The notes under the pieces: generated by a model
Told to the model about the DNA's origin: nothing
Databases searched by the model: none
Seen by the model: only the letters and a program-made list of their open reading frames with translations
Assembly (NCBI GenBank): GCA_000999095.1
Contig: LCFP01000003.1
Span: forward strand, 26,839 to 90,838
DNA length: 64,000 bases
Direction: 5' to 3'
Source of the DNA: Candidatus Gottesmanbacteria bacterium GW2011_GWA2_43_14
GTDB lineage: Bacteria; Patescibacteriota; Microgenomatia; 2-02-FULL-39-11
Translations under genes and position numbers: made by a program
Shown here: in pieces, positions 1,540 to 48,874 of the stretch
How the letters are laid out: each line of letters starts with the position of its first letter
How positions within the stretch are numbered: the stretch's first letter is position 1

Positions 1540-2982
1540 TCAGGTCGGCAGTCTTTTGAAAAGAAAAACAGCAAAATTACCGACATCAGTCATCCTTTTA
1601 ATCATGAAATATTCCCCGTATTTTCCCAAAAACTTGGAATGACATTTTTCAATTTTTTCTTTGTCACATACAATAAACAGGTATTCGGGTGTTTCATTAA
1701 TCATATTGATACCGAAATCTGAATCCCCGGAGAATTTACTGAACTGATATTCAAGCTTTTCTTCAAAAAAATACCATAAAGACGGACTGTGGATGTAATT
1801 TCCCAGAACCATCAGGGTGTTGAAATCCTGCAGTTCGTTTTGCCTTACTTCTATTATCATCTGCTCTGCCAATTTCTGTTTTGTTAAGTAATCATCCTGT
1901 TTCCTGTACAAACGGTCATACGAATTTGAAATAAGAGATAAAAAATAAAATAAAAGAAAAAATCCGGACAAGCGGAAAGAGAGTTTTTTTGCACTGATAA
2001 TGTTGATGCCGAGATAACCGATTAATAGATAATAAAATGGAAAAACAGGGGTAAAGTAAGAAGAACAGCAATATTCACTGTTATTGCTTACGGCTATTAA
2101 AAATATTCCAATGGGAAAAAGTAAAAAAGCTATCTTTTTCAGAGAAAGATTATTCAGCAATATGCTGCCGACCAGTAAAATTAACAGGATGATTACCGCG
2201 GGCAAGATGTTTAATTTTTCGATCCTAAAGATACTTTCCAGGTAAAGAGGAACAAAACCGGTAATTTTAAAAATACTGAAATTCGGCCGGAATGAAGGAT
2301 AAACTCCGTCGCGGATATAAGTTTTTATCAACGGGATATTCAACAGTGTAAAAAACAGGAACAGCAATAAATTTGAAAAGAAAACCAACTTATAATTTTT
2401 GGTTTTCAGGTAAGCCCAAACAGCATAGGGAATAAGCAACAGGAACGGTGTGTAATAAATAAAACTTGATATGAAGATGAAAAGATACGACAGAAAGAAA
2501 AAGCCCAATTTCGACTTTTTCAAAAAAATCAGAAAAAAAGCAAAGGAAAAAACCGTCAGCGGGATAATTAAACTGCCACCCAGGATATTTCTTGAATAGA
2601 AAATTTCATTGGTAGCAACGGCAAAAAATAAAGCGGACAAAAGACCCGTCCGGTTATTAAAAAGCAGTTTTCCGATTAAATATATGGGGAAAACGGCAAG
2701 AGCATGAGTTGCGGCAATCAGGGAAATGATAAACTCCAGATTGCTGCTGATCAGCATGGGCAGAGCCAATATATAGTAGCCTATGACCGGATATTGGGAT
2801 TTTATTGCCCAGGCATACGGACCCTTTACCGGATGGTCAGCGTATTGAACTATATGTCTGGCAATCAGATAATAATAAGAGTTGTCACCGTCCCAGAGGG
2901 TCGGCAGTCTTTGCGCCAGACGTAAAATCAATCCCAGGGTAAAGATAAAAAAAAGGAGACGGCGGCTATTTGCCAGCTTCAT
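1540..2982 (-). CDS. polytopic membrane glycosyltransferase, GT-C fold (ArnT/PMT-like, GT39/GT83-type)
   Basis: 480 aa, more than 10 predicted TM helices, N-terminal region typical of dolichyl/undecaprenyl-phosphate-sugar dependent GT-C enzymes (…LWDGDNSYYYLIARHI…). Confidence 0.6.
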   Translation of the reverse strand: MKLANSRRLLFFIFTLGLILRLAQRLPTLWDGDNSYYYLIARHIVQYADHPVKGPYAWAIKSQYPVIGYYILALPMLISSNLEFIISLIAATHALAVFPIYLIGKLLFNNRTGLLSALFFAVATNEIFYSRNILGGSLIIPLTVFSFAFFLIFLKKSKLGFFFLSYLFIFISSFIYYTPFLLLIPYAVWAYLKTKNYKLVFFSNLLLFLFFTLLNIPLIKTYIRDGVYPSFRPNFSIFKITGFVPLYLESIFRIEKLNILPAVIILLILLVGSILLNNLSLKKIAFLLFPIGIFLIAVSNNSEYCCSSYFTPVFPFYYLLIGYLGINIISAKKLSFRLSGFFLLFYFLSLISNSYDRLYRKQDDYLTKQKLAEQMIIEVRQNELQDFNTLMVLGNYIHSPSLWYFFEEKLEYQFSKFSGDSDFGINMINETPEYLFIVCDKEKIEKCHSKFLGKYGEYFMIKRMTDVGNFAVFLFKRLPT

Positions 2983-3032
2983 CTTAATAATTTTAACATT
3001 ACGGCAGAATCAATTTTTAGTATAATTTTCCT

Positions 3033-3722
3033 ATGCTGCGAAAGAATTTTATATATTTGGAAATTGCCTCGCTGATCCTTATGGCATTACACGGTATAAT
3101 TCTTTTCGGACCGCAGATTCTTCTTCTTTTTGCCCTGACTTATATCTCAAGTACTGCCGCGGAGCTTTTGGCACTTAAAACACCAATCGGCTGTTTCGGA
3201 GTCAAATACAAGTATGACCTGAAAAATCCTCGCTTTAGTTCAGGGATTAATTTTTTCGGTGTTTACCCCCTGGAAATTTCTTTGGCCTGGATGGAATTGA
3301 AATATATTTCATTTTGTTTGGGAGTCTTGATCGTTTCGGCTTTTAAATTACCGGAAGCAGCGGCAATCGCTTTAATTCCCCTGATTCTGGTTTCCCTGGA
3401 TTTTATCATTGATCCAGTATCAGTATTCGAAAAAAAACTTTGGAAGTGGGAGAGCGGCAGTTTTTATTTCGGCATCCCGTTGAGTAATTTCACCGGTTGG
3501 TATTTGGTCGGTCTGGCGCCGACATTATTATATGTCATATCGGCCGGTTATCCGGTGGCATCCGGGAAAATTCTGTATCTTTTGCCCGTTATTTTTTACG
3601 CTTTAGTCTTTAGAAATACCCCAGTCATGTTCAAGAAAAACCGTACCTTGGCTCTCTCAGGTACATTTCCGGCATTTTTGTGGCTTTTTTTGAGCACCTT
3701 AAGCCTGATGAGAATATCTTGA
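3033..3722 (+). CDS. hypothetical polytopic membrane protein
   Basis: 229-aa hydrophobic ORF with multiple TM segments; no motif recognised. Confidence 0.5.
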   Translation: MLRKNFIYLEIASLILMALHGIILFGPQILLLFALTYISSTAAELLALKTPIGCFGVKYKYDLKNPRFSSGINFFGVYPLEISLAWMELKYISFCLGVLIVSAFKLPEAAAIALIPLILVSLDFIIDPVSVFEKKLWKWESGSFYFGIPLSNFTGWYLVGLAPTLLYVISAGYPVASGKILYLLPVIFYALVFRNTPVMFKKNRTLALSGTFPAFLWLFLSTLSLMRIS

Positions 3723-4186
3723 CTGATGCAACTGTGTTGCATTATGATTGGAGTGTGGAGAACATCAACAGTTTAATAGCCAAAATAAAAAGCAGGGGAC
3801 ATAAAATTACCAGGGGAAGAAAACGAATTCTGCAAATACTTTTAAACCTGAACGCTCCGGTTACAGCCTCCGAATTAATGAAGCTTCTTGAAGAGAAAGA
3901 GGCAACACTCAACAAAACAACCGTCTACCGGGAGCTGGAATTTCTGCAAAAAGAAGGTTTGGTGAGGACCGTTCAACTGGATGAGAGAAAACAGCGGTTC
4001 GAACTTATAAAAGGCGATCACCACCATCATCTGGTTTGTAAAAACTGTAAGAATGTAGAAGATGTGGCTTTTGCATCTCTGGAGGAACAAATGAAAATGT
4101 TCGAAAAACAGCTGAAGTACAAAAGTCAATTCCGGGAAATCAAACACTCTTTGGAATTCTTCGGACTCTGCAGGCATTGTCAATAA
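3680..4186 (+). CDS. Fur-family metal-responsive transcriptional regulator (Fur/Zur/PerR); true start probably an internal GTG/TTG downstream of 3680
   Basis: N-terminal winged-helix region (KSRGHKITRGRKRILQILL…ASELMKLL), HHHH and CxxC…CxxC metal sites (HHHHLVCKNC … CRHC). Confidence 0.8.
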   Translation: MAFFEHLKPDENILTDATVLHYDWSVENINSLIAKIKSRGHKITRGRKRILQILLNLNAPVTASELMKLLEEKEATLNKTTVYRELEFLQKEGLVRTVQLDERKQRFELIKGDHHHHLVCKNCKNVEDVAFASLEEQMKMFEKQLKYKSQFREIKHSLEFFGLCRHCQ

Positions 4187-4241
4187 CACTCCATTTTGGT
4201 ATTCGTTCCCCGCTTAGCGTAATATTAAATCAGATAAGGAG

Positions 4242-4667
4242 GTGAGACAGATGAATTTAACATTAAAAAGAGGAGTCTTTGCCGGAGCAGCCAATTTGAT
4301 TACCGGGTTGGGACTCGGCTGGCTGATAGGAATTATTCTTCCCGCAATTGCGGAAGAATACCAGAACACGGCTATTTTCCGGCCTTGGAGCGATCCAAGG
4401 ATGATGGTTTATTTCGCCTATCCTTTCATACTCGGTTTGGCTTATGCCTATATCTGGTCGATGGTCGAGAGGCAGTTTAAAGGGAATGACCGGATTGAAC
4501 GGGCAGGCCAGTTTGCCAAACTCTATTTTATTATAGCGACCGTCCCCGGGATGTTTATCACATATACCAGTTTCCAAGTGTCGTTGATGATGGTATTGTT
4601 GTGGACGGTAACCGGATACATGCAGGCCTTTGTCGCCGGCTGGATTTTTGCCTCGGTCAAAAAATAA
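4242..4667 (+). CDS. hypothetical membrane protein
   Basis: 141-aa ORF, strong SD (AAGGAGGTGAG) 7 nt upstream of ATG, 3-4 TM helices. Confidence 0.6.
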   Translation: MRQMNLTLKRGVFAGAANLITGLGLGWLIGIILPAIAEEYQNTAIFRPWSDPRMMVYFAYPFILGLAYAYIWSMVERQFKGNDRIERAGQFAKLYFIIATVPGMFITYTSFQVSLMMVLLWTVTGYMQAFVAGWIFASVKK

Positions 4668-4679
4668 ACAGTCTTTCTT

Positions 4680-5570
4680 ATGTCACGATACAGAAACAAG
4701 ATTTTATTCCTGGTGCTTTTGCTATTGTTTCTTTCACCTGTTTTCATTCCCGGATTGAGAAATATTTTAACGATAGAGGACGGCCGGATTATTTTGCAAT
4801 TTGCTGAATCCGGTGAAAAAGTTACCCGGGAGAGCAATCTAAAGACTATACCAACACCTACCAATATGCCAAGCGCCACACCGCTACCGTACTCAGTCAT
4901 CACGATAAACGGACCATCAGAAATTACCGAGGGAGAAATGGCTGCTTTCACCTGGTATGTCAATGGACAGCCGACAAAGGTGAATTCAACCTCAATCTAT
5001 TACGGCAAAAAAAGCACTGCTGACTGGAATATCAGCGGCATTTCGCCTGAGGATTCAGTTTATACCCAATTTCTCCAGGAATTTATACAAGGCGAATTTA
5101 ATATCCCGCTGACATTCGTGGGAAATTCGAAAACCATTGAGGAGGGAAAATATTATTACAGATCCTATGCTTTGATAAACAACAGGCATTATTGGAGCAG
5201 CGAAAAATCTTTTCTGGTAAAAGCAGTTCCCAAAAATGAAATTAAAGTCATCGATTTTCCCGGGAAAATCCATCCAAATGAGAATGCCGCCTTCACCTGG
5301 GAAATTCTGGGGCCGCAAGCCTCAACCTGGTATACGGTTATAGCCGGAAGCAAAGAGTCAAAATCCGGAGAACTGCCGGTAACCGCTGATTTGGCATCGA
5401 CTCCTTATAAAATTCTGATAAAAGACTTCACTGAGAAGGAGAGCAAAGTCCCCTTAAGATTTATCGGCAATACCTTTTTTCCGGATACGGGCGTCTATTA
5501 TTTCCGTGCTTTAGCGTTTATTAATGATAAAAATATCTGGTCGGAAGAATATTCTTTGACTGTTGAATAA
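4680..5570 (+). CDS. secreted protein with two tandem copies of a ~100-aa domain
   Basis: Signal peptide/TM at N-terminus; internal repeat (AAFTWYVNGQ…YYYRSYALINNRHYWSSEKSFLV vs AAFTWEILGP…VYYFRALAFINDKNIWSEEYSLTV). Confidence 0.6.
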   Translation: MSRYRNKILFLVLLLLFLSPVFIPGLRNILTIEDGRIILQFAESGEKVTRESNLKTIPTPTNMPSATPLPYSVITINGPSEITEGEMAAFTWYVNGQPTKVNSTSIYYGKKSTADWNISGISPEDSVYTQFLQEFIQGEFNIPLTFVGNSKTIEEGKYYYRSYALINNRHYWSSEKSFLVKAVPKNEIKVIDFPGKIHPNENAAFTWEILGPQASTWYTVIAGSKESKSGELPVTADLASTPYKILIKDFTEKESKVPLRFIGNTFFPDTGVYYFRALAFINDKNIWSEEYSLTVE

Positions 5571-5575
5571 AACAT

Positions 5576-6190
5576 ATGAATCGCGAAGGACAAAGTGCAA
5601 TTAAAAATCATTTTGACAGACTGTATAAACAGGGAATTACCCCCTGGAAAAATCATCCGCCGTCATCCCTGCTTATCCGTTTTTTCGCCCTGTTGAAAGC
5701 TTCTGCGGCAAAAGCAAGGCTTCTTGATTTGGGCTGCGGCGACGGTTGGCTGACGATAGAAGCTGCCAGGGTATCTATTGCAGCTTGGGGTATCGACGCT
5801 TCGGAAACAGCCATCGAAAGAGCTGAAAAGTCGGCAAAGTCAACCGGTATTGCCTCCAAAACCAAGTTTGCAGCCGGAGACGCCCTGGATTTACCCTATG
5901 AAGACAATTTTTTCGACGGAATGATTGACCGGGGGCTTTTCCATCATATCCTGACGGAAAACAGGCAGCTTTACTTTGACAATATTTTGCGGGTGTTAAA
6001 AAAAGATGCCCTGGTTTATCTGGCTGTTTTCAGCGAGAATAATCCGGAAGGGATAGGCCAGAGGTTTACCGGGAAAGATATCGCAGCACTTTTCGGCAGA
6101 TATTTCCGTATTATCCAAACAGAGAAGGACAAATTGCCGACTACTGCCCCGGCTCATCTGCTTCATTTAATTCTTAAGAAAACGCAATAA
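5576..6190 (+). CDS. class I SAM-dependent methyltransferase
   Basis: Motif I LDLGCGDGWLT and downstream acidic-loop motifs typical of Rossmann-fold methyltransferases. Confidence 0.75.
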   Translation: MNREGQSAIKNHFDRLYKQGITPWKNHPPSSLLIRFFALLKASAAKARLLDLGCGDGWLTIEAARVSIAAWGIDASETAIERAEKSAKSTGIASKTKFAAGDALDLPYEDNFFDGMIDRGLFHHILTENRQLYFDNILRVLKKDALVYLAVFSENNPEGIGQRFTGKDIAALFGRYFRIIQTEKDKLPTTAPAHLLHLILKKTQ

Positions 6191-6198
6191 ATATTCCC

Positions 6199-6879
6199 AT
6201 GATAAAGGTCAGTTGCATCATCCCTTTTTATAACGAATCCTTAAATCCCCTCTATGTGATTGAGTCAGTCCGGAAATTAAGACCGAGGCCTGAAATCATT
6301 GCCGTCGATGACGGATCGGACGATAATTCTGCCTTCATGGCATTGAAACAAAAGTATAAAGACATTGTTTTATTGAAATTGAGCAAAAACAAAGGTAAAG
6401 CCGGGGCGATAAAATCCGCTTTAGCTCACGTCACCAGCAATTATGTGCTGTTAATTGACGGTGATTTATCGAGCATTAAAGAATATGGGATAACTAAAGC
6501 CGTCGACAGGATTATCAAAAATCCGGAAATCGATATGATTATTCTGCGGCGGACCAACGACAAAACAGCTGCTTACCTTCCTTTTTTAAGAGATGATATT
6601 ATTCTTTCCGGACAGAGAATATTAAAAACTGAAGATCTGAGAAAAGTCTTTGCCAAAACAATTAACGGATATAAATTGGAATCGGAAATAAACAGTTTCA
6701 TGATGAAAAGAAATAAGAAAGTATTTTGGATGCCTTTAAGCATAAAGAACAGGCATAAACAGCATAAGTGGGGTTATTGGGAGGGTATTAAAATCGGACT
6801 GCCGGGCTTTTTCCGCTATATGTTTTCCCCGGAAATGGTTCGGCAGATTTTGTTTTTCTGCAAAGAAGAAGCCATATAG
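6199..6879 (+). CDS. GT2-family glycosyltransferase (dolichol/polyprenol-phosphate sugar synthase-like)
   Basis: N-terminal CIIPFYNE…AVDDGSDD GT-A signature (DxD context). Confidence 0.75.
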   Translation: MIKVSCIIPFYNESLNPLYVIESVRKLRPRPEIIAVDDGSDDNSAFMALKQKYKDIVLLKLSKNKGKAGAIKSALAHVTSNYVLLIDGDLSSIKEYGITKAVDRIIKNPEIDMIILRRTNDKTAAYLPFLRDDIILSGQRILKTEDLRKVFAKTINGYKLESEINSFMMKRNKKVFWMPLSIKNRHKQHKWGYWEGIKIGLPGFFRYMFSPEMVRQILFFCKEEAI

Positions 6880-6940
6880 AAGACTATACAAAATAAGAAC
6901 CGTGCTATAATAAATCTGACTGCCCCCGAAAACCTGATTT

Positions 6941-8140
6941 ATGACTCGAAGCATCTTGGAGCGGCTGACCCTGGTTCATCCTGATTTGGAAATCTGGTGG
7001 GATTCATCACCTCTGGTCTTCAGTTCATGGGTCAGGAAAATGGTCGGAAACGCCCCCCCGACTGAAAAAGAACTTCTTGAAGAACAATTAAACAGAATTT
7101 TTAATACCACTAATCCCTCCGAAAGCATCATACGCGGATGCACCACCAATCCGCCTTTATCCCTGACTGCCGTCAAAACAGACCCTGAAACATGGAATGG
7201 GTGGATCGACCAGTTGATCAGATCCAAAAAAGGCCTGAGCCGGCAAGAGTACAGCTGGCTGACCTATAAGGAAGTCATAAGAAGAGGGGCAAAAATGATG
7301 CTGCCGATCTGGGAAAGCTCCGGCGGCAAGTACGGTTATATTTCCGGCCAGCTTGATCCCAGGCTGTTAACCGAAGGGGAGAAAATGATAAAAATGGCCA
7401 AGGAAATCCGCGCCATTTCACCCAATCTGATGATAAAAGTACCGGCTTCAACGCAAGGGGTGGAAGTTGTTAAAGTCCTGACTTCCCTGGCCATCCCGAC
7501 AAACGTCACTACCTGTTTTACCCTGCCGCAAATTTGGGCTGTTGCCCGTGCTGCCAAGGAAGGAGCGGCCATTGCGGAGAAAAACAAAGTGGACATGACT
7601 AAATGGCGGGCTGTCATAACCATGATGATCGGCCGGCTGACAGAACATCCGGTTTTGGACGAACAGGCAGAAAGGCGGGGAATTAAACTCTCCTGGAGCG
7701 ACAAGCATTGGCTGGGTATTTATGTCTTCAGAAAAGCCTTTAAACTCCTGAAAGAAAATGCCATGCCCAGCAAAATGCTGGCCTGCTCCATGCGGGACGG
7801 ACCCCTCGTTTCCGGCAGTTACCGCTTCTGGGATATCGAAAAAATCGCCGGAGAAATCGTCTATACTATGCCGCCCTACGTTTTGGAACCTCTGTTCCTG
7901 CGCTGCGGAAGTCTCAATTTCAGAGAGGAAGTTCTTTATGATGATGTACCTGAGGAAGTAATCGATAAAATGGGCAAAATTCCCTTCGTCAGGCAATCCT
8001 GGGATGAAAACGGCATGGAAGAAGATCAATTTAACCAGCATCCTTCAACCGTTTCAACCGCGGCAACTTTTGCTCAGGCAACGCTTGGCCTGGAAGAATA
8101 TATCGGTAAAAGGATGTCGGTCAAGGCCCGGAAGAAATGA
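6941..8140 (+). CDS. tal: transaldolase-family protein
   Basis: TTNP(P)LSL motif (IRGCTTNPPLSL) and Schiff-base lysine context IKVPAS-QGVE; 399 aa is longer than classical TalB, so subfamily uncertain. Confidence 0.6.
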   Translation: MTRSILERLTLVHPDLEIWWDSSPLVFSSWVRKMVGNAPPTEKELLEEQLNRIFNTTNPSESIIRGCTTNPPLSLTAVKTDPETWNGWIDQLIRSKKGLSRQEYSWLTYKEVIRRGAKMMLPIWESSGGKYGYISGQLDPRLLTEGEKMIKMAKEIRAISPNLMIKVPASTQGVEVVKVLTSLAIPTNVTTCFTLPQIWAVARAAKEGAAIAEKNKVDMTKWRAVITMMIGRLTEHPVLDEQAERRGIKLSWSDKHWLGIYVFRKAFKLLKENAMPSKMLACSMRDGPLVSGSYRFWDIEKIAGEIVYTMPPYVLEPLFLRCGSLNFREEVLYDDVPEEVIDKMGKIPFVRQSWDENGMEEDQFNQHPSTVSTAATFAQATLGLEEYIGKRMSVKARKK

Positions 8141-9240
8141 AAAAGCAAATCTCCGATTATCTGGTCCCCTATATTAAACCACTGACGATGTACGTTTCAG
8201 GACACATCGATCTGGCCTGGAAAAAACCTTCACTCAAACGCATGATGTCCAATGAAAACCCCCTGCCTCCCTCCAAAAAAGTATTGAAAACCGTGATGAA
8301 GTATGCCTCCATGGCCAACCGCTATCCTGACCAGGGCATCACCGTCCGCACTAAAATTGCAAAAATGAATAAACTGCATGGAGCGGAAAATGTGGTATTG
8401 GGCAACGGCTCCAGCGAGATTTATGACATGATTTTCAGGACTTTTCTTGAGCCGGGGGATGAAGTTATCCAGCAGACGCCCTGTTTCGGAATCTACAAAC
8501 TGAGATGCGAAGTTCTGGGCGGCAAGATCATATCGGTGCCGATGATCTATAGGGACAAAAAACTGCTTTATGATGCAGAGGGTATTATAAATGCAATCAC
8601 CCCTAAAACAAAAATAATCGTTGTCGCCAATCCCAATAACCCGACAGGCAACTTCATGGAAACAGCTGATTTTATCCGCCTGGCTAAAACGGGCATCCCT
8701 TTATGCATAGATGAGGCTTATATTGAATATGAGGGATTTAAAAAGTCACATACGAAACTTATAAGAAAATATAAAAATGTAATCGTTACCAGGACACTTT
8801 CCAAAGCATACGGACTGGCAGGGCTTCGTTTCGGCTACCTTTTGGGAGACAGGGAAGTCGCCATGAAAATAGCGGCAACACTTCTGCCCTGGAATGTCGG
8901 TACGATTTCCATGTGGGCAGCTTTGACAGCATTGGGAGACAAAAAGGGATTGAAAGACAGGGTCAATTACAACAACGGGGAACGTGCGGCTATCATCAAA
9001 GCCCTGAGCAAAATTCCGGGACTGGTCATTTTTCCGTCAAAGGCAAATTATGTGCTTTTCGATAGTGGACCGGCCGGTAAAAAAGGTGAGGACATCATCA
9101 GTTTCGCCCAGAAAAAAGACATTATTTTAAGGGGAGACAAACCCAAGTATGGAAGCGACGGTTGGTTCCGGGTGACCGTCGGCAGTAAAGCGGAAAACCG
9201 CAAATTCGTAAGAGTCATCAAAGAATTCTTTTCCAAATAA
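8137..9240 (+). CDS. hisC: histidinol-phosphate/class II aminotransferase (PLP-dependent)
   Basis: N-terminal NENP motif, PLP-lysine motif SKAYGLAGLRFGY; 4-bp overlap with upstream gene. Confidence 0.65.
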   Translation: MKKQISDYLVPYIKPLTMYVSGHIDLAWKKPSLKRMMSNENPLPPSKKVLKTVMKYASMANRYPDQGITVRTKIAKMNKLHGAENVVLGNGSSEIYDMIFRTFLEPGDEVIQQTPCFGIYKLRCEVLGGKIISVPMIYRDKKLLYDAEGIINAITPKTKIIVVANPNNPTGNFMETADFIRLAKTGIPLCIDEAYIEYEGFKKSHTKLIRKYKNVIVTRTLSKAYGLAGLRFGYLLGDREVAMKIAATLLPWNVGTISMWAALTALGDKKGLKDRVNYNNGERAAIIKALSKIPGLVIFPSKANYVLFDSGPAGKKGEDIISFAQKKDIILRGDKPKYGSDGWFRVTVGSKAENRKFVRVIKEFFSK

Positions 9241-9248
9241 TCCGTTAT

Positions 9249-9851: not shown

Positions 9852-9859
9852 ACTGCCTC

Positions 9860-12203: not shown

Positions 12204-12310
12204 GGTTTTCCTTTCACAATTGCCCTAATAGCAACTTCTTGCGTTAATCTTAAGATATTTTTACTTAGGTTACTTAATCGAAGTGCTAGGTTGAAATAAC
12301 CCTTAAGTAT

Positions 12311-15772: not shown

Positions 15773-15776
15773 TTTT

Positions 15777-16892: not shown

Positions 16893-16904
16893 TATGAAAA
16901 TCTT

Positions 16905-18530: not shown

Positions 18531-18540
18531 AGTTATAATT

Positions 18541-20354: not shown

Positions 20355-20476
20355 ATTCATTTTTTACCGATAGGTGTGATTTTCTTAAGAAGTTATTACC
20401 AATGTAAAGTATGAATCAGGCATAAAATTGTCATAAATGAATGATACGGAGGGGTTTATCCTCTCCTTATTAATCT

Positions 20477-21769
20477 ATGTACGATATCATCCTGCAAAAA
20501 CTGGAATCGAGAAAAAAACCGATAGAAGTGATTGTTTCGGGTTTGGGTTTTGTTAGTTTCGGTTTCATCTCATCAATCCGTAACTTCAAAGGTCTAAAAG
20601 TTCCCTTGGTCATTACCAGAAGACCGGCAGCCGCCCGCAGTTTTCTGGAAAAAAAAGGATTAAAAGCGGTTCTGGAAAACAATCCGGACAAAATTAAAGA
20701 CAATTCGAATCTGGGGATCATTTCCCTGACTGATGATTTAGAGCTTATCAATAATTATGAAAATGAAGTTGTAATAGAAATGACAGGTACGATTGCCTAC
20801 GGTACGAAAATTGCCTTAAAGACAATCAAGGCCGGGAAGCATCTGGTGACTATGAATCCGGAGCTTCAGGCGACCGTCGGAGCGGAACTTCATACATTGG
20901 CCAGCCGCAAAAAAGTGGTGGTAACAGATATCATCGGCGACCAGCCGGGCAGCCTGGCACGGTTGATAAACCAGGCGAAAGTGATGGGCTTCCGTGTTTT
21001 ACTGGCCGGTAATATGAAGAGGTTTTTGAACAGACATGCCACTCAGTCCGAAATGCAGAACTGGGCTGATAATAAGGGTTTGTCAGTCAAACAGACGGTT
21101 TCTTTTACCGACGGTACCAAACAATCGATAGAAATGAATCTGGTAGCCAATTATTTCAATATGGATATCCTGGAATTCGGCATGCATGGGCCAACAGTCG
21201 AAACTGTTCATGATTCGTTAAACTCTTTTCACTGGGACAAGTTACCCCGGGAAGGCATTGTTGACTACGTTATAGGAAAAAAATTGTTTCCGGGTGTTTT
21301 TCTCATCGCCGAACATCCGGACAAAAACCAAAAACCATACCTATCTTATCTCGGTTTGGGAGAGGGACCCCGTTATGTCCTTTTTGAGCCTTATCATTTG
21401 TGCCATCTGGAGGTTGCGGGCTCAATCGCCAAAGTAATTCTGACCAAAAAGGAAATAATCAGCAATACTTACCCGAAAACCAGGACGATCGCCGTAGCGA
21501 AATACAGGCTTTACCCGGGGCAGAAATTGGATGGTATCGGCGGTGATCTTATTTACGGGAATATTGATAAAGATGAATATGCAAAAGATTTTCTGCCCGT
21601 CGGTCTAACCGAAGGGGCTGTTCTTAAAAAAGCTTTACATCAGGACCAGCCGATCAAAATCTCTGATGTTATTTTGCCACAAAACGCCGCCACTATTTTA
21701 ACCGGATTGGCAGAAAGCCCAAGAGGAAAGGAAAAAATAGATTATGAATTCCCGTCAGTTAAGGTTTAA
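20477..21769 (+). CDS. NAD(P)-binding oxidoreductase with C-terminal SAF-like domain (COG4091 'predicted homoserine dehydrogenase'-like)
   Basis: N-terminal Rossmann GxGxxG (VSGLGFVSFG); size and domain order match COG4091; assignment by recall only. Confidence 0.4.
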   Translation: MYDIILQKLESRKKPIEVIVSGLGFVSFGFISSIRNFKGLKVPLVITRRPAAARSFLEKKGLKAVLENNPDKIKDNSNLGIISLTDDLELINNYENEVVIEMTGTIAYGTKIALKTIKAGKHLVTMNPELQATVGAELHTLASRKKVVVTDIIGDQPGSLARLINQAKVMGFRVLLAGNMKRFLNRHATQSEMQNWADNKGLSVKQTVSFTDGTKQSIEMNLVANYFNMDILEFGMHGPTVETVHDSLNSFHWDKLPREGIVDYVIGKKLFPGVFLIAEHPDKNQKPYLSYLGLGEGPRYVLFEPYHLCHLEVAGSIAKVILTKKEIISNTYPKTRTIAVAKYRLYPGQKLDGIGGDLIYGNIDKDEYAKDFLPVGLTEGAVLKKALHQDQPIKISDVILPQNAATILTGLAESPRGKEKIDYEFPSVKV

Positions 21770-21838
21770 ATGTCCAGAAAATACCAGCTAAGAGTACTTC
21801 TTTTACTGCTTATATCTGCCGGCCAAATATTGATCTAA
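21770..21838 (+). CDS. possible 22-aa hydrophobic micro-ORF (MSRKYQLRVLLLLLISAGQILI) at the boundary of an AT-rich segment
   Basis: ATG abuts the upstream stop and its own stop is followed by the next ATG; no SD; may be non-coding. Confidence 0.2.
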   Translation: MSRKYQLRVLLLLLISAGQILI

Positions 21839-21839
21839 A

Positions 21840-22979
21840 ATGAAAATTCTTTACTTCGGCTCTTATGACAATGATTACATTAGAAACGTTATTAATATAA
21901 AAGGTCTCAGATTAAACCTAGTTGATGTAATAGTATGTAATTTTTATAAAAGAAAATTATTTATAGCATCTGAATATTCGAAAATTACTTATCTAATTAG
22001 AATTTCTACTTCATTGTTTTACCGTTCGATTTATCTTTTTTTTAAAGGAATAATTATTATTATTAAGCAAAAAATTTCATATATCATTATTGGATTTCCT
22101 GGTCATCTTGATATTCCGATAGGCTATCTTATCGCAAAAATAACCGGTAGCAAAATAATTTTTGATCCTTTTATATCGCTATATGATACCTTTGTAACTG
22201 ACAGAAAAATTTTTAGCACTGACTCCTTAATTTCAAAAAGCATAAAAAAGTACGAAACCGCAATATATAAACTTCCAGATTTAATTTTGACACATACAGA
22301 GACTGATAAGTTATATTTCTCAAAAAGTTTCAAGATCCCCTTGAATAAGATCAAAGTTCTTTACATTGGAAGTGATAATTTAACGCAAAAAACCACTGCG
22401 CTCACCGGGAAATCTTCCGATTTTTCAGTTGTATATCAAGGCAACTTTATTCCATTACACGGAATTGAACATATTATTCATTCTGCATTTATTCTGAGTC
22501 AAATAGATAAAAAAATTAAATTTATATTCGTTGGAAACGGACAAACATATCAAGAAAATTTTAATCTCGCAAACATATTAAAACTTAGAAATGTTGTTTT
22601 TAAAGGATTCGTTTCAATATATGACTGGAAAAAAACAATTAATAAGGCCGATATTATATTAGGGATTTTCCAAAATTCGGTGAAGGCTTCTAAATCGATA
22701 CCAAATAAAGTAATTCAAGGAATTGCAGCTAAAAAAGCCGTAATTACCGCAGAAACTACAGCAATTAAAGAATTATTTAATCACTTTGAAAATATGTATT
22801 TCTGCAAACCAGCAGATCCTCTCTCTTTAGCGAACGGAATATTAGAACTAAAAAGAAATTCGAATCTAAGGAATAAAATCGCTTATAACGGGAATAAAAT
22901 ATACAAAAATAAACTAACGCCAATTTCAGTAGGGCGTGAGTTACTGACTATTTGTAACGAGTTTCAAAATTCAAATTAA
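21840..22979 (+). CDS. GT-B-fold glycosyltransferase, AT-rich paralogue of 15777..16892
   Basis: Aligned N-terminus MKILYFGSYDNDY vs MKICFFGTYFANY and C-terminal …IPNKV…FCKPADP; local GC about 28%. Confidence 0.6.
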   Translation: MKILYFGSYDNDYIRNVINIKGLRLNLVDVIVCNFYKRKLFIASEYSKITYLIRISTSLFYRSIYLFFKGIIIIIKQKISYIIIGFPGHLDIPIGYLIAKITGSKIIFDPFISLYDTFVTDRKIFSTDSLISKSIKKYETAIYKLPDLILTHTETDKLYFSKSFKIPLNKIKVLYIGSDNLTQKTTALTGKSSDFSVVYQGNFIPLHGIEHIIHSAFILSQIDKKIKFIFVGNGQTYQENFNLANILKLRNVVFKGFVSIYDWKKTINKADIILGIFQNSVKASKSIPNKVIQGIAAKKAVITAETTAIKELFNHFENMYFCKPADPLSLANGILELKRNSNLRNKIAYNGNKIYKNKLTPISVGRELLTICNEFQNSN

Positions 22980-22980
22980 A

Positions 22981-24069
22981 ATGAAAATAATAATTTCTAA
23001 TTACGATGAAATAAAAAATCCTTATTATGGCGGAGGAGGAGCTATGAGTAATCATAAAATCGGTAAATATTTAGCGGAAAAAAATGAAGTAATGATTATT
23101 TGTGGCGCATTTAAAGGCTGCAGGAACGGTGTTGTAGAAGGTGTATTTTATAAACATATTGGTATAAAAAGATTTGGTCCAATTTTGGGACAGATATTCT
23201 TTTCGTTATTACTGCCCGTATTCGCGTTGATAGAAAATTATGATTTATGGGTAGAAAATTTTGTACCGCCTCATTCTACCAATTTCATTCCAATTTTCAC
23301 CAATAAACCCGTCGTGGGGGTCAGTTCACTCTTGCACGCAAAAGAATTTAGTCAAAAATATGGAATCCCGTTTTATTTAATAGAAAATTTAGGTCTAAAA
23401 TTCTATAAGAATATCCTTGTATTGAGTAATGAATATGCTAAAAAAGTCCAAAAAATCAATAAAAAAGCGAAAATAGTAGAAATTCCAAGGGGGGTAGATG
23501 ACGCTTATTTTGAAATTAAAGGAAATGAGAACAACTATATATTGTATTTAGCGCGAATTGATATTTTCCAAAAAGGTTTAGATTTATTGTTGAAAGCATG
23601 GAAAAAAGTAGTTTATAGGTATCCGCATATCAAATTAGTTATAGCAGGAAATACTACATTTGCAGAAGAAAGAAAATTCAAGCAAATCGTTGATCAACTT
23701 TCATTAGATAAAAATGTTAAGTATATAGGATTGGTAAAAGGAGAAAAAAAAAGAACCCTATTATCAAACTCTCTTTGTGTGATCAGTCCATCACGGTTTG
23801 AAAGCTTCGGCAATTCATCATTGGAAACATTAGCAGCAGGGAAATGCTTAATAGTATTTGATATACCCGGTTATTGCTGGATACCGGAAAATGTTTCAGT
23901 AAAAATAAAGTCGGTAAATTTCAATTTGTTAGCTGTGGCAATTGAAAGAGTCATTTCCAATAAAGAATTAAGAATTAAGTACGGAAAACTAGCAAGGAAT
24001 TTTGCTGAAAATTATAGATGGAAAAAAATATTTAAATTGTACGAAGCTTATTTTTTAAATGTAAATTAA
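22981..24069 (+). CDS. GT4-family glycosyltransferase
   Basis: GT4 motifs (…ESFGNSSLETLAAGKCLIVFDIPG…); AT-rich. Confidence 0.7.
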   Translation: MKIIISNYDEIKNPYYGGGGAMSNHKIGKYLAEKNEVMIICGAFKGCRNGVVEGVFYKHIGIKRFGPILGQIFFSLLLPVFALIENYDLWVENFVPPHSTNFIPIFTNKPVVGVSSLLHAKEFSQKYGIPFYLIENLGLKFYKNILVLSNEYAKKVQKINKKAKIVEIPRGVDDAYFEIKGNENNYILYLARIDIFQKGLDLLLKAWKKVVYRYPHIKLVIAGNTTFAEERKFKQIVDQLSLDKNVKYIGLVKGEKKRTLLSNSLCVISPSRFESFGNSSLETLAAGKCLIVFDIPGYCWIPENVSVKIKSVNFNLLAVAIERVISNKELRIKYGKLARNFAENYRWKKIFKLYEAYFLNVN

Positions 24070-24073
24070 ATAT

Positions 24074-25642
24074 ATGAAGCTCTTAAAAGCAATTAGTTTT
24101 ATTTCATTTTGCATTGCGATATCCGTCTTATTAACTCTCACAATAAAGGGTAACGAAGGTAACCCTTTACCCTTTCAAAACGATCATAATACTAAGGTGG
24201 GGGGGCCATTTGAAGCATCCAACACAACTTCAAGGTATGCTTTAACTTTGGCAATTGCTGAAAACGGATCATTTTTTCTCAATGAAGATTTGGCCAAGTT
24301 TGCTTCACCTGATGTAGTCAAATATAAAGACATGTATATGTCAATCTTTGCGCCCGGAGTATCATTTATAGTAATTCCATTTTATCTTTTTGGAAAAAAA
24401 CTGGGACTTCCTCAGGTAGTTACATTTTTAAGCGTAACTTTCTTTGCCTTATTCAATCTTTTTTTAATAGCCTGGATTTCCATAAAACTGGGATCCGGAT
24501 TCTGGACGGGTTTTTTGGGCGGATTTATTTTCTTATTCGGTACCAATGCCTTGTCATATGCACAAACACTTTCCCAGCACCATTTTACTGTGACAGTTGC
24601 ACTCCTGGCAATAATTACGGCCATGGGTAAACGGACCCTTATCAAAAATATCTGGTTCGGGATATTGTTTGGACTTGGTGTATTGGTAGATATTCCCAAT
24701 GTTTTTCTACTGGCTCCGATTCTTATTTATATTCTGTACAGGCAATTCTATCGGGAGATTTCTGCTGAAATTATTCGAGTCAACATGTCCTTAAATTTTA
24801 TCGGGTTAATTTTAGGAGTGCTGCCGTTTATTGCCTTATTTGCCTGGTATAACAGAGCTACCACCGGTTCATACACAATGCTTGCGCAATCAATCGGTCG
24901 GATGGAAGAGCATGGGGAAACGTTCTCTCAAAGTGATTCAGTAATCCTTCGGGAACAAAAAGATGTCAGAGCTCCGAAAGGAATCCGATTACCTTTTAAT
25001 CCAAGAAAACAGTTAGCCGGAGCGTACACATTATTTATAAGTGATGAAAGATCATGGATATATTACAGTCCGGTAGTCCTTTTAGGTATTTTTGGTCTTT
25101 TTAAACTTCTTAAAAATCAAAAATACAGAGAATTTGCAGCAGTTTCATTGTCAGTGATTTTTCTTAACGGTATTATGTATTCCATGTTTGGAGACCCCTG
25201 GGGGGGTTGGGCATTCGGACCCAGGTATTTAATTCCGGCGGGAGCGCTGTTGTCTATCGGATTAAGCATAATTTATACCAATTGGAACAGGAATATTCTT
25301 TTTATGTTGATTTTTGTGATTTTGGCTATTTATAGTCTGCGCATCAATACTCTCGGTGTGACAACAACCACTATGATTCCGCCGAAGATAGAGGCAATTA
25401 ATCTTCCTAAACCTATACCTTACACCTACGACTATAACTTCCAGCTTCTGAATAAGAATATCTCCAGTTCACTAATTTATAATCGCTTCTTGTCTAAAAA
25501 ACTGACTGCCACAGATTATTCTTACAGGCTCTTCATATCTGTTTCTTCGGTTTTTCTATTACTCACAATAGCTTCTTATTTCGAAATAAAAACATTAATT
25601 AAGAAATCTCATTACAGGAAGATATATATAAATAACATATGA
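24074..25642 (+). CDS. polytopic membrane glycosyltransferase, GT-C fold; paralogue of 16905..18530
   Basis: 522 aa, more than 10 TM; MFGDPWGGWAFGPRYLIPAG motif shared. Confidence 0.6.
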   Translation: MKLLKAISFISFCIAISVLLTLTIKGNEGNPLPFQNDHNTKVGGPFEASNTTSRYALTLAIAENGSFFLNEDLAKFASPDVVKYKDMYMSIFAPGVSFIVIPFYLFGKKLGLPQVVTFLSVTFFALFNLFLIAWISIKLGSGFWTGFLGGFIFLFGTNALSYAQTLSQHHFTVTVALLAIITAMGKRTLIKNIWFGILFGLGVLVDIPNVFLLAPILIYILYRQFYREISAEIIRVNMSLNFIGLILGVLPFIALFAWYNRATTGSYTMLAQSIGRMEEHGETFSQSDSVILREQKDVRAPKGIRLPFNPRKQLAGAYTLFISDERSWIYYSPVVLLGIFGLFKLLKNQKYREFAAVSLSVIFLNGIMYSMFGDPWGGWAFGPRYLIPAGALLSIGLSIIYTNWNRNILFMLIFVILAIYSLRINTLGVTTTTMIPPKIEAINLPKPIPYTYDYNFQLLNKNISSSLIYNRFLSKKLTATDYSYRLFISVSSVFLLLTIASYFEIKTLIKKSHYRKIYINNI

Positions 25643-27258
25643 ATATTCTAAATTTGCGGTTTTCCATAAAAAAAGGCTCATTAGATAAAATAAGCGAATG
25701 GGAAAGCAGGATGCCGTTATTACTTCTGGGTATTTTAGCGATCTTGTCCATTGTCTGTTTTTACATTTTTTATGATAACGGGCTCGGACTTTCCTACAAC
25801 GATGCCCGGTCGCATCTGGACATCGGAAGACGCGTGGTTGAAGGATTAAAACCCGGGTTGGCCCAACTCGGATCAGTCTGGCTGCCTCTGCCTCACCTTC
25901 TTATGATTCCGACAATTTGGCATGATTTTATGTGGCATACCGGGCTTTCGGGAGCATTGCCCTCGATGCTTTCATTTGTGGCTACATCTCTCTTGATCTA
26001 TTTTTTTCTGCAAAAACTGGGTGTCGGCTTATCCGGAAAAATACTGGGGGTTGCCGTATTTGTCGCCAATCTCAATGTCCTGTATCTCCAGTCAACAGCC
26101 ATGACGGAACTGCTTCTCCTGGCAACCATGACTGCCGGTATGTATGAGCTTTTAAAGTGGAGCATGGATGAAAATTTCCTCAATCTTATTAAATCCGCTT
26201 TTTGGATCATGCTTTCCTCCCTTGTCAGATATGAAGGCTGGTTTCTGCTGCTTTATGCAGCCTTTCTGATAATTTTCATTATGGTGAGGAAAAAAGGCTA
26301 TAAAGTAACGGAAGGCACCTTGATTCTTTTCGGAACTTTGGCAGGAGTTGGTATTCTGTTATGGTTTCTCTGGAATACTTTGATTTTCAATGATCCCTTA
26401 TATTTTGCCTACGGTCCTTTCTCAGCCCGCACCCAGCAGAAACAAATGGAACTGGCCGGTGTCTTATCTACAAAAAACAATTTATTGTTATCCCTGAAAG
26501 TCTATCTATTTGCCTTAATCTATAATTCTTATGCCTATAATGCCGTTTTGGGACTTATAGGAGCAATAGTATTTTTCACCGATAAAAATATTAAACCTCA
26601 TGTCAGGTTTGCAGCTACTGTTTTGCTTACTCCATTAATATTCAACGTTTTAGCACTTTTCATGGGTCACTCTGTTCTATTTATACAGGGAATTTCAGGC
26701 GATACCTGGTTTAACGTCCGTTACGGTCTGATGATGCTGCCTTCAATTGCCATTTTTGCGGGCTACCTCGTCCATAAAGCCAAGTCATTAAGAGTAACCA
26801 TAATCGGATTATTTGTCTTTGTTATTTTTTTTGCATTTACCAACGGTGATGCAGTCACAATTGATGATGCAAGAGTCGGCTCCAGCCAGAAAAATGTCTC
26901 AGAGGTAAGCGGTTATCTGAACACCCATGCCAAAAATACAAAGGGATTTGTGCTTATTTCGGCAGCTTCACACGACGCCATTATTTTTTCATCAGGACTT
27001 CCCATGAAAAGATTTATCCATGAAGGAACAGGCGGCTATTGGGAATCGGCAACAGGCAGTCCTGACAGATGGGCGCGCTGGATAGTCGTACGCACCAACG
27101 ACAATAATGACTTAACCTGGAAATCCCTTTCCGAAGCACCGGATTCCATATCAAAATACAAACTGGCCGCCAAATATCCTTTTGCCGATGTTTACGAATT
27201 GAAAAAAGAATACCTGGCGGAATTAATCACGGAGCCGATTCTCGGAAAACAAAAATAA
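25639..27258 (+). CDS. polytopic membrane protein with C-terminal extracytoplasmic domain (possible GT-C-like)
   Basis: 539 aa, about 11 TM then soluble domain; 4-bp overlap with upstream GT-C gene. Confidence 0.45.
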   Translation: MNILNLRFSIKKGSLDKISEWESRMPLLLLGILAILSIVCFYIFYDNGLGLSYNDARSHLDIGRRVVEGLKPGLAQLGSVWLPLPHLLMIPTIWHDFMWHTGLSGALPSMLSFVATSLLIYFFLQKLGVGLSGKILGVAVFVANLNVLYLQSTAMTELLLLATMTAGMYELLKWSMDENFLNLIKSAFWIMLSSLVRYEGWFLLLYAAFLIIFIMVRKKGYKVTEGTLILFGTLAGVGILLWFLWNTLIFNDPLYFAYGPFSARTQQKQMELAGVLSTKNNLLLSLKVYLFALIYNSYAYNAVLGLIGAIVFFTDKNIKPHVRFAATVLLTPLIFNVLALFMGHSVLFIQGISGDTWFNVRYGLMMLPSIAIFAGYLVHKAKSLRVTIIGLFVFVIFFAFTNGDAVTIDDARVGSSQKNVSEVSGYLNTHAKNTKGFVLISAASHDAIIFSSGLPMKRFIHEGTGGYWESATGSPDRWARWIVVRTNDNNDLTWKSLSEAPDSISKYKLAAKYPFADVYELKKEYLAELITEPILGKQK

Positions 27259-27264
27259 CAGATT

Positions 27265-33046: not shown

Positions 33047-33064
33047 AAGAATGAATATTGTACC

Positions 33065-48865: not shown

Positions 48866-48874
48866 TATAGATGA

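Follow-up and report, generated by a model that had tools for sequence, protein, structure and literature searches.

The window analysed here is a stretch of 64,000 nucleotides from a contig of the groundwater candidate-phylum organism Candidatus Gottesmanbacteria bacterium GW2011_GWA2_43_14 (LCFP01000003.1). It encodes five polytopic membrane proteins with 9-12 hydrophobic segments each, which we refer to as A (1540-2982, minus strand), B (10974-12203, minus strand), C (16905-18530, plus strand), D (24074-25642, plus strand) and E (25639-27258, plus strand). The original prediction had placed all five exactly, and its inventory of accessory enzymes also holds: five GT2 domains (6199-6879, 18541-19449, 19446-20354 and two inside a 1153-aa fusion protein), four GT4 (GT-B) domains (the C-terminus of the fusion, and genes starting at 15777, 21840 and 22981), the triple fusion itself, a SAM methyltransferase (5576-6190) and a DRL/COG4091-type oxidoreductase (20477-21769). 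What does not hold is the idea of a single island of ∼25 kb. Because the interval 3033-10993 also contains unrelated genes (Fur, transaldolase, class I/II aminotransferase and histidine kinase by Pfam), the 25 kb does not form a single block but consists of a conserved core locus and two unrelated modules, containing A and B, with housekeeping genes in between. The appearance of one island with five GT-C genes is due in part to juxtaposition, and synteny in related genomes limits the non-random co-location to the 11 co-directional genes at 12311-28500.

The core begins with the fusion protein, encoded on the plus strand. Its N-terminal domain (12311-13000, residues 1-230) is a polyprenyl-phosphate sugar synthase-like GT2 of the DPMS/ArnC/GtrB type, for which homology suggests a role as the GT-A that synthesizes a polyprenyl-phosphate sugar. 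Phmmer comparison with PDB sequences matches it to Pyrococcus DPMS (5mlz, 7.9e-21), ArnC (9bhc, 1.6e-18) and GtrB (5ekp, 5.8e-13), and it scores under the cutoffs of the NCBIfam models for ArnC (86.4 bits), Streptococcus mutans PgfS (78.2 bits) and AglJ (52.8 bits). Two TM helices follow at residues 277-324. The second domain (13328-14440, residues 340-710) is a cellulose-synthase-like membrane GT2 with the full D, DxD, TED, QxxRW signature (DDS391, DAED441, TED534 and QRSRW571), which is retained in 21/21 homologs and followed by about four TM helices (segments at 599-708). It matches Glyco_tranf_2_3 and Glyco_trans_2_3 in Pfam, CelA in NCBIfam (68.7 bits), and PcManGT (6yv7, 1.3e-7) and BcsA (7.5e-6) in the PDB over residues 425-656. 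These motifs and membrane helices are those expected of a processive β-glycan synthase, and the enzyme is predicted to be processive. The third domain (14648-15730, residues 780-1140) is a GT4 (GT-B) glycosyltransferase (Glycos_transf_1, 150.3 bits; Glyco_transf_4, 54 bits).

The remaining glycosyltransferases of the core are soluble GT2 and GT4 enzymes, all encoded on the plus strand. A soluble GT-B enzyme (15777-16892; Glycos_transf_1, 79.4 bits) precedes C, and two 302-aa GT2 enzymes (18541-20354; Glycos_transf_2, 75.5 and 41.1 bits), in which no TM segment was found, form part of the variable portion of the locus, their family varying in copy number across 61 related loci. The proposal that multiple DPM-synthase-like GT2s could supply the lipid-linked donors is supported by homology for the first domain of the fusion; in all, only one or two of the GT2s have this appearance, the 302-aa enzymes being soluble. 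An NAD-dependent oxidoreductase of the DRL/COG4091 type with a SAF domain (Pfam DRL_cat, 150.9 bits; NAD_binding_3; SAF) is an optional member of the locus, present in 21-23 of 80 related loci, where its gene lies either in the variable portion or after E and ahead of the gene for the secreted protein described below. It is followed by two GT-B enzymes (21840-24069; Glycos_transf_1, 58.5 and 88.2 bits) with G+C contents of 0.282 and 0.305, compared with 0.421 for the window; such very low values indicate that they were probably acquired horizontally.

C (541 aa) belongs to a family that lacks a Pfam model. In a three-dimensional fold test its predicted structure is of the GT-C type with high confidence, and its best structural matches are the monosaccharide transferases ALG12, ArnT and PMT, not oligosaccharyltransferases. 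Residues 23-87 form the first extracytoplasmic loop, which links TM1 to TM2; among 121 sequences, its positions E46 and D79 never vary and E62 hardly does. The co-encoded DPMS/ArnC-like domain is what suggests that C uses a polyprenyl-phosphate-linked sugar donor. D (522 aa) is a paralog of C (35% identity, E 6e-80) that retains all 28 invariant residues of the C/D family alignment, and this homology, with the predicted structure of C, places both in the GT-C fold. D occupies the canonical position directly upstream of E; elsewhere this position is filled by either a C-type or a D-type gene, with one copy each. The C/D family comprises >1200 homologs.

E is a 539-aa protein with a basic N-terminus, ∼11 hydrophobic segments and a C-terminal soluble domain of ∼130 aa. 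It is highly conserved across Microgenomates (61-73% identity), with 2349 homologs and occurrence in 366 species genomes of this group. An invariant YNDARSHL loop follows TM1, and the first outside loop (residues 46-101) contains the invariant acidic residues D55 and E68 within YNDARSHLDIGRRVVEG. No Pfam domain was found among the best 120 of the 2349 homologs, a PMT_2 match appears in 2/50 family members (at 0.003), and E itself has no match among PDB sequences. Comparison by hhalign was negative, and the C-versus-B positive control fails in hhalign too. The sole curated family matched by C, D and E together is NF047440 (LA_3751/LA_3752 family putative glycosyltransferase, from Leptospira), on which we found no publication. 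C scores 33.6 bits, and the family of C matches in 48/48 members; D scores 35.6 bits (E 4.8e-9); and E scores 25 bits (E 7.6e-6), with matches in 27/50 members of its family (best 3.8e-9). These scores of 25-36 bits, where the curated cutoff is 200 bits, make the three proteins distant relatives of the family and not members of it. Through this shared distant link E is probably a GT-C, and its hydropathy layout resembles that of C.

Directly downstream of E lies a conserved secreted protein (27265-28500, plus strand) with a C-terminal CarboxypepD_reg-like domain, 54% identical to the product of the gene 3′ of E in a Daviesbacteria genome. Its family has the invariant residues E152/E154/N155 and G250-E251-x-G253, CarboxypepD_reg matches in 14/29 members (best 8e-9) and weak Glyco_hydro_cc matches in 6/29 (best 0.004); the protein has no match in the PDB. 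From these sequence features it is possibly a clan GH-A glycoside hydrolase. In related genomes, the C/D-family gene is directly upstream of the E homolog in 73/73 loci and the secreted protein downstream of E in 62/63, giving a conserved order of fusion (DPMS/ArnC-like, cellulose-synthase-like and GT4 domains), 1-5 variable glycosyltransferase genes, one C/D-type gene, E and the secreted protein. A LAxTG protein and a sortase come next in most of the 80 relatives that were examined. The LAxTG protein in 48 related loci is a 198-aa secreted protein with a Ser/Thr/Gly-rich linker, which has the sorting signal in 47/48 and is followed by the sortase in 46 loci. The window has no homolog of the 198-aa protein, and its sortase-like gene (35573-36142, plus strand; E 2.7e-17 to an HMM of the locus-downstream sortase family) is 7 kb from the locus, whereas in many relatives the sortase gene adjoins it. 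As it lacks BLASTP similarity to one Pfam-labelled Daviesbacteria sortase, this sortase is assigned to a different subtype. Further downstream, an UppP/BacA undecaprenyl-diphosphate phosphatase (36814-37590, minus strand; 58% identical to a BacA labelled as such by Pfam, E 7e-104) provides a context of lipid-carrier recycling.

A (480 aa) is the first gene of a separate three-gene operon on the minus strand. It has 10 hydrophobic segments and matches Pfam PMT_2 (PF13231) over residues 65-206 with 27.0 bits (E 5.9e-6), only 0.9 bits above the gathering threshold of 26.1; it also has a local match to the archaeal STT3 model TIGR04154 (E 3.1e-6). The two following genes (186-1522, minus strand), spaced by an 18-bp gap and a 4-bp overlap, encode a membrane-anchored protein of 167 aa and a secreted one of 278 aa whose translation ends in a C-terminal tail rich in Ser/Thr/Pro. 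Pfam matches of these two proteins are weak (Big_6, DUF5666), and they are possible acceptors.

The module of B includes a six-gene operon on the plus strand (3033-6879), encoding by Pfam a Caroten_synth-family membrane protein (starting at 3033), Fur (3680), the SAM methyltransferase (5576-6190) and a small soluble 226-aa GT2 (6199-6879), together with a 141-aa protein with ∼4 TM segments (4242), a flippase candidate by size and topology only, and a 296-aa anchored surface protein (4680). The 226-aa GT2 scores under all relevant NCBIfam cutoffs (AglJ 47.5, ArnC 40.7, PgfS 35.1 and PpgS 27.1 bits). B itself (409 aa) is a polytopic GT-C related to GT87 (PimE-like) and GT50 (PIG-M). The single sequence has no Pfam match even at E values up to 10 and no NCBIfam match, and an AlphaFold model from 8 sequences has a pLDDT of 46. 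An exhaustive profile search returned 1747 relatives; among those aligned, GT87 is matched in 35/75 (best 8.6e-11) and PMT_2 in 6/75, and the family profile aligns over its full length with GPI mannosyltransferase 1 (PIG-M, 23gx_B, E 8.6e-12). Near-invariant residues are D65, D125 and GQFD158-161. On these profiles B is a relative of GT87/PIG-M, below threshold-level membership. In GCA_000998355.1, the order Caroten_synth-138aa-286aa-134aa-GT2 is repeated convergent to a B ortholog, with a GT2 64% identical to the 226-aa enzyme; the linkage of B to a small GT2 is known from just these two Gottesmanbacteria genomes. Taken together, the notion that the five polytopic proteins are GT-Cs and not transporters is secured by structure for C and D, strongly by profile for B and narrowly, above the Pfam threshold, for A; for E it is only probable.

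Multi-component transmembrane glycosylation systems of Gram-positive bacteria (CsbB/GtcA/YfhO, GacI-L, CsdAB and GtsABC; PMC8035078) provide one close parallel. In these, a membrane-linked GT-A makes a polyprenyl-phosphate sugar and a polytopic GT-C works outside. Many of these GT-Cs carry no domain that can be recognised and are found by structure only, with the same top structural homologs as here (ArnT, STT3, AglB, PglB and AftD). Likewise, C, D and E are co-encoded with the GT-A-containing fusion in one co-directional array conserved in relatives. The locus differs in lacking a GtrA/Wzx flippase gene, in the fusion of the GT-A to a cellulose-synthase-like GT2 and a GT4, and in having two GT-C families (C/D and E) that always occur together, neither of which is YfhO or clearly PMT_2. 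In ArnC-ArnT lipid A modification and among the Dol-P-sugar enzymes of eukaryotes and archaea (DPMS with ALG12, ALG9, ALG3, PMT and PIG-M; AglJ/AglD with AglS/AglB), the counterparts are DPMS and ArnC for the first fusion domain, ALG12 and ArnT structurally for C, and PIG-M by profile for B; however, identities are only 10-15%, NCBIfam scores are far under equivalog cutoffs, and the acceptors of these systems (lipid A, N-glycan and GPI) would be unexpected in a member of the CPR. B shares with mycobacterial GT87 enzymes (PimE and relatives, acting with Ppm1) the GT87 matches of its relatives and, in two genomes, the pairing with a soluble GT2 of the size of the Ppm1 catalytic domain or PpgS, but it is below every Pfam threshold, and genes of a phosphatidylinositol mannoside pathway did not turn up.

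The core is best read as a pathway for extracytoplasmic glycosylation that depends on polyprenyl-phosphate sugars. On the inner side of the membrane, the first fusion domain would put a sugar on polyprenyl phosphate; the other two fusion domains, together with the soluble GT2/GT4 enzymes of the variable set, would then build a glycan chain or lengthen the lipid-linked sugar. The lipid-linked donor would pass across the membrane via a flippase, although Pfam detects no GtrA, Polysacc_synt/Wzx or MurJ in 186-33046. Outside, the two GT-Cs, one of the variable C/D type and the near-invariant E, would move the sugar to the acceptor, and trimming or other processing of the product may fall to the secreted protein. 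In this pathway the synteny, the identity of the domains and the GT-C fold in C and D are established; the donor lipid, direction of flow, acceptor, sugars and the GT-C nature of E are what we infer, and no sugar-nucleotide synthesis gene that would identify the sugar occurs in the window. The evidence throughout consists of sequences and predicted structures from uncultured organisms. We put at roughly 60% the probability that the region contains three neighbouring glycosylation modules, the main one of which (12311-28500), matching the locus conserved in Microgenomates, most likely builds a strain-variable cell-surface glycoconjugate via polyprenyl-phosphate-linked sugars. A (PMT_2 type) and B (GT87/PIG-M type, with its small GT2) each form a two-part system of their own, similar in general type. 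Counting against this reading are the missing flippase, the links of E far under the curated cutoff, the 0.9-bit margin of A, the weak hydrolase matches of the secreted protein and the need of the soluble GT2/GT4 enzymes for an acceptor on the cytoplasmic face.

Protein O-mannosylation, one of the pathways originally proposed, finds no mannose marker, and PMT (PF02366) and MIR domains are absent from all five proteins by Pfam; an S-layer glycan or lipoglycan pathway, the other, finds no S-layer gene or lipoglycan anchor enzyme. A Wzx/Wzy-dependent O-antigen or capsule locus was considered and rejected: Pfam detects no Wzx, Wzy or initiating phosphoglycosyltransferase in the region, which sets it apart from EPS loci of the classical Wzy type. 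The broader claim that it is no simple EPS locus survives to that extent, but through the cellulose-synthase-like GT2 with all its motifs the core may yet make a polysaccharide. Synthase-dependent operons have secreted partners such as BcsZ, PgaB and PslG, which the secreted protein of the locus resembles. An ordinary pathway of this kind, in which the second fusion domain makes and exports a β-glycan, the secreted protein is a hydrolase and the polytopic proteins are accessory non-transferases, would account for the complete motif signature, membrane helices and BcsA match of that domain, features shared with BcsA/BcsZ operons and the minimal PcManGT, and for the conserved, possibly GH-A-like partner. 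We nevertheless hold it to be highly improbable: C has its high-confidence GT-C fold and conserved acidic first-loop residues, the synthase domain sits between the GT4 domain and a DPMS/ArnC-like domain that has no role in a plain synthase pathway, and no PilZ or BcsB-like partner is reported by Pfam.

Streptococcal protein O-glycosylation by the Pgf operon (PgfS, PgfE, PgfM1 and PgfM2) or by GtrB-PgtC2 (PMC12041528) offers another model, in which C/D and E would pass the lipid-phosphate sugar from the first fusion domain to the Ser/Thr-rich linkers of sortase-anchored LAxTG proteins. The Pgf operon likewise combines one GtrB-like GT-A with two GT-Cs and encodes its own LPXTG substrates (PMC12041528), the first fusion domain matches PgfS, 198-aa LAxTG proteins and sortases adjoin the locus in most relatives, and the operon of A encodes a protein with a Ser/Thr/Pro-rich tail. 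However, PgfM/PgtC2 belong to the YfhO family, to which C, D and E have no Pfam match; the window contains no YfhO or epimerase by Pfam and no LAxTG-protein homolog, and so lacks a Pgf-type operon; and the cellulose-synthase-like domain, the 1-5 soluble glycosyltransferases and the secreted enzyme would have no role. The sortase is 7 kb away here, and its adjacency elsewhere may reflect merely a common cell-wall neighbourhood. We regard this model as unlikely. Slightly better placed, though still rather doubtful, is en-bloc transfer, in which the first fusion domain would prime a polyprenyl-monophosphate sugar and the variable soluble enzymes would add to it until an oligosaccharide is complete, as in Haloferax AglJ and the Lactococcus PSP pathway, E would be the ligase or oligosaccharyltransferase, and C/D a polymerase or side-chain transferase; it is at odds with the resemblance of C to monosaccharide transferases, needs a flippase for the lipid-linked oligosaccharide that was not found, and leaves the role of the processive GT2 domain unexplained. 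Finally, the density of five GT-Cs may be a chance juxtaposition without common function, an explanation that we consider evenly balanced overall. It holds for A and B relative to the core, since in 80 related loci the 10 kb around E contain no homolog of either, the modules are kept apart by housekeeping genes and B is linked to its GT2 so narrowly; it fails for C, D and E, given their linkage in 73/73 loci.

CPR bacteria are ultrasmall, uncultured and thought to be host-attached, and their envelope chemistry is hardly known. The protein families enriched in Microgenomates are reported to be mostly hypothetical, many of them membrane proteins (PMC6744442). The locus is a sugar-coat gene cluster present in hundreds of related uncultured bacteria and seemingly never described before; it defines a conserved 10-20 kb unit with a serotype-like variable centre, and allows a fold and likely role to be proposed for two Pfam-less families, C/D and E (>2300 homologs). 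A more speculative extension, which we think has a small chance of being correct, is that the fusion, the C/D-type protein, E and the secreted enzyme form a Microgenomates-specific machine for the principal secondary cell-wall glycopolymer, which would take the place of teichoic acids and be attached either to sortase-anchored LAxTG proteins or to peptidoglycan. In that scheme the acceptor of E, a GT-C ligase of a new type, would never change, and the mutually exclusive C- and D-types, with the swappable glycosyltransferase cassette, would give these episymbionts a serotype-like surface identity that matters for host attachment. The locus supplies concrete candidates for the surface glycoconjugate of a whole bacterial class, at which lectin or antibody probes, glycoproteomics and reconstitution in a heterologous host can be aimed.

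The ORFs of the window taken as genes for the Pfam and NCBIfam scans (29 of at least 100 aa, 186-33046) include five polytopic membrane proteins, which the ORF table places exactly where they had been predicted: A (1540-2982, -), B (10974-12203, -), C (16905-18530, +), D (24074-25642, +) and E (25639-27258, +), each with 9-12 hydrophobic segments. The remaining predicted inventory was likewise recovered by these scans, comprising five GT2 domains (at 6199, 18541 and 19446, and two within a triple fusion), four GT4 domains (the fusion C-terminus, 15777, 21840 and 22981), the 1153-aa fusion itself (12311-15772), a SAM methyltransferase (5576) and a DRL_cat/NAD_binding_3/SAF oxidoreductase (DRL, 20477). 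The original prediction joined these into one 25-kb glycosylation island. The region is one conserved locus (12311-28500) and two outsiders, A and B; the span 3033-10993 also includes other genes, among them those for Fur, transaldolase, an aminotransferase and a histidine kinase.

In a pattern scan, the E family was found in 366 species-representative genomes, with named carriers among the Gottesman-, Chisholm-, Davies-, Woese-, Curtiss-, Levy-, Ames- and Shapirobacteria. Local phmmer mapping over 80 E-containing loci revealed a nearly constant gene order of fusion, variable genes, a gene of the C/D family (to which the paralogs C and D belong), E, and a homolog of the secreted protein 27265-28500. 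In the relatives, the locus starts with a GT2-GT2-GT4 fusion of 1100-1600 aa, followed by 1-5 GT2, GT4 or DRL genes (median 2), and a DRL gene sometimes lies after E. Each related locus has a single C/D-family gene, which immediately precedes E in 73/73, and the 27265-28500 homolog is downstream of E in 62/63 loci. The pattern recurs on two long contigs annotated with Pfam, where other modifying enzymes, namely deacetylases, acetyltransferases, methyltransferases and a kinase, occupy the middle.

The position upstream of E is taken by a C-type gene in ∼40 loci and by a D-type gene in ∼31, one per genome, a bimodal distribution. The two types are clearly separated and elsewhere mutually exclusive, and the window is unusual in carrying both. 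Its locus looks like two merged cassettes, the first consisting of the fusion, the GT4 at 15777 and C, and the second of two 302-aa GT2s (18541 and 19446), DRL, two GT4s (21840 and 22981) and D. The latter two GT4 genes (21840-24069) have G+C contents of 0.282 and 0.305, compared with 0.421 for the window, which fits a horizontally exchanged cassette and suggests that they entered the variable central part of the locus recently by horizontal transfer.

In the 80 loci, neither A nor B has a homolog closer than 10 kb to E. In another Gottesmanbacteria genome (contig L003), the B ortholog is convergent to an operon encoding Caroten_synth, proteins of 138, 286 and 134 aa, and a small GT2, colinear with window 3033-6879. 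A Caroten_synth (PF04240) membrane protein heads the small-GT2 operon in both genomes (window 3033-3722; L003:16188-16874). A metagenome scan with the B family yielded no further independent genome with the arrangement of B and small GT2. NiFe-hydrogenase large-subunit-like genes also lie a few kb from the glycosylation modules in both genomes (window 59686-61479; L003:2227-3988), which is probably merely a conserved genome neighbourhood. The product of the last gene of the A operon (186-1022, -) is secreted and ends in a Ser/Thr/Pro-rich tail (SSTPSSITATPETISIFPTEAVTPTEVTANPT), and disordered regions of the same kind are O-glycosylated by GT-C enzymes in streptococci.

Of the five GT-C enzymes originally proposed, the assignment is supported for A, B, C and D, in the case of A narrowly (Pfam PMT_2, 27.0 bits vs a threshold of 26.1), while E is a probable member only. 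Single-sequence phmmer searches of the PDB with A, B, C or E as query found nothing even at E 10, and the family profiles (B, built from 8 sequences; C/D; E) likewise had no PDB match. B has no direct family match and only eight close homologs, and its AlphaFold2 model built from the 8-sequence alignment (pLDDT 45.9) was unusable; its assignment came instead from an exhaustive profile search, which retrieved 1747 relatives. Among 75 aligned relatives, 35 match Pfam GT87 and six PMT_2, and their profile matches the solved GPI mannosyltransferase 1 (PIG-M) over its full length (E 8.6e-12), with the nearly invariant D65 of B aligning within the acidic motif of the PIG-M first loop. The deposited B protein has 361 aa (88% coverage); homologs of 402-404 aa align starting at residue 2 of the 409-aa ORF, and the annotated start thus seems too late. 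Three metagenome contigs (L097-L099, ∼9900-12500) carry distant B-family (GT87-like) genes whose immediate downstream neighbour is a 441-aa GT2 similar to fusion domain 2, which hints at another recurrent pairing of GT-C with cellulose-synthase-like GT2.

Pfam searches with 48 C/D-family members (E up to 1) returned noise only, and with 50 E-family members noise and weak PMT_2 matches in 2/50. NCBIfam NF047440 is matched by 48/48 C/D members (best 7.8e-18), and also by E (7.6e-6) and 27/50 members of its family (best 3.8e-9). The hydropathy layout of E resembles that of C, with TM1, a ∼55-aa loop containing invariant acidic residues, approximately seven TM helices, a 42-56-aa loop and four TM helices, and E is probably a GT-C enzyme. 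Comparisons among the B, C/D and E families by hhalign found nothing; C vs B, both GT-C, was also missed, and the negative result is therefore uninformative for E. Because E lacks a GT2 domain, its GenBank name, 'family 2 glycosyl transferase', finds no support.

The first fusion domain (aa 1-230), which precedes two TM helices, is similar to the dolichol-phosphate mannose synthase of Pyrococcus (7.9e-21), to ArnC (1.6e-18) and to GtrB (5.8e-13), GT-A enzymes charging polyprenyl phosphate with sugars. The second (aa 340-710) has matches in BcsA and in PcManGT, a minimal cellulose-synthase-like enzyme, and contains the motifs DDS391, DAED441, TED534 and QRSRW571 together with C-terminal membrane helices, the motifs being kept in 21/21 homologs. 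Domain 3 is a GT4. The 226-aa GT2 at 6199 gave AglJ, ArnC, PgfS and PpgS matches, all sub-threshold, and neither the two 302-aa GT2s nor the three free GT4s have convincing membrane segments. Rather than the several DPM-synthase-like GT2s anticipated, sequence similarity thus points to one good candidate lipid-phosphate-sugar synthase, fusion domain 1, and possibly one more.

The secreted protein 27265-28500 has invariant acidic and GEFG-like motifs; its family profile found nothing meaningful in the PDB and weak Glyco_hydro_cc matches in Pfam, and it is tentatively assigned as a hydrolase. All-against-all clustering of locus ORFs identified two further conserved downstream families, a secreted LAxTG protein and a sortase. 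In 48 related loci (among L004-L083), the glycan locus is followed by a 198-aa secreted protein (e.g. in the region of L004:14788-15342 and 15347-15886) with a domain containing four conserved Cys, a Ser/Thr/Gly-rich linker and, in 47 of the 48 copies, an LAxTG sorting signal (most commonly LASTG); a sortase gene follows in 46 loci. The LAxTG protein may serve as a glycosylation substrate or as an anchoring partner. The window contains no homolog of it; in place of these genes are overlapping ORFs of 79 and 95 aa (28489-29005, -), which by eye look like a RelE/ParE-type toxin and a Phd/YefM-type antitoxin. A sortase-like gene (35573-36142) and UppP (36814-37590) lie further downstream. Directly upstream of the former is a small ORF (35209-35493, +) without a C-terminal membrane anchor, which from an internal Met, if this is the real start, encodes a signal peptide and then repeated Asn-x-Thr sequons (TTNNTTNNTTGNLTDNVTENTTG); the product may be a glycosylated peptide, or the ORF may be no gene at all.

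The neighbourhood is crowded with cell-wall enzymes (31955-34249 and 44457-56553). Pfam identified two class A PBPs, a DD-carboxypeptidase and a GH18 in the remainder of the window, as well as a C39-like peptidase with TPR repeats. Inspection by eye alone pointed to a YkuD-like L,D-transpeptidase at 33065 and, at 33728, to an SLT-like protein whose linker is rich in Pro and Thr. The window also carries four sensor histidine kinases. No tRNA genes were found, and promoter and terminator scans gave signal at or near shuffle expectation.

The system combines a DPMS/ArnC/GtrB-like GT-A with GT-C enzymes having conserved acidic first loops, and includes no ABC exporter and, by the Pfam scans, no Wzx, Wzy or phosphoglycosyltransferase, a combination that favours a polyprenyl-phosphate-sugar pathway. 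In this predicted pathway, fusion domain 1 would make the polyprenyl-phosphate sugar, which C/D and E would use outside the membrane, building or decorating a strain-variable surface glycoconjugate whose chain may come from the cellulose-synthase-like domain, the variable soluble glycosyltransferases, or both. The conserved ends and variable middle of the locus, together with the alternation of C-type and D-type, suggest en-bloc transfer by the near-invariant E as a possible refinement of this pathway. A second possible refinement is O-glycosylation of LAxTG proteins, which would resemble the Pgf and GtrB-PgtC2 systems of streptococci (PMC12041528). Protein O-mannosylation, one of the pathways originally suggested, is not supported, and no evidence singles out mannose.

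Families enriched in Microgenomates are mostly hypothetical and often membrane proteins, sortase is near-ubiquitous there (PMC6744442), and one Microgenomates genome is reported to have 29 glycosyltransferase genes (PMC7143001). A literature search found no description of the C/D or E families or of the core locus. The system would work in the same mode as known GT-A/GT-C glycosylation systems; what sets it apart from them is the triple-fusion enzyme, the two GT-C families that lack a classification and a conservation that spans the lineage.
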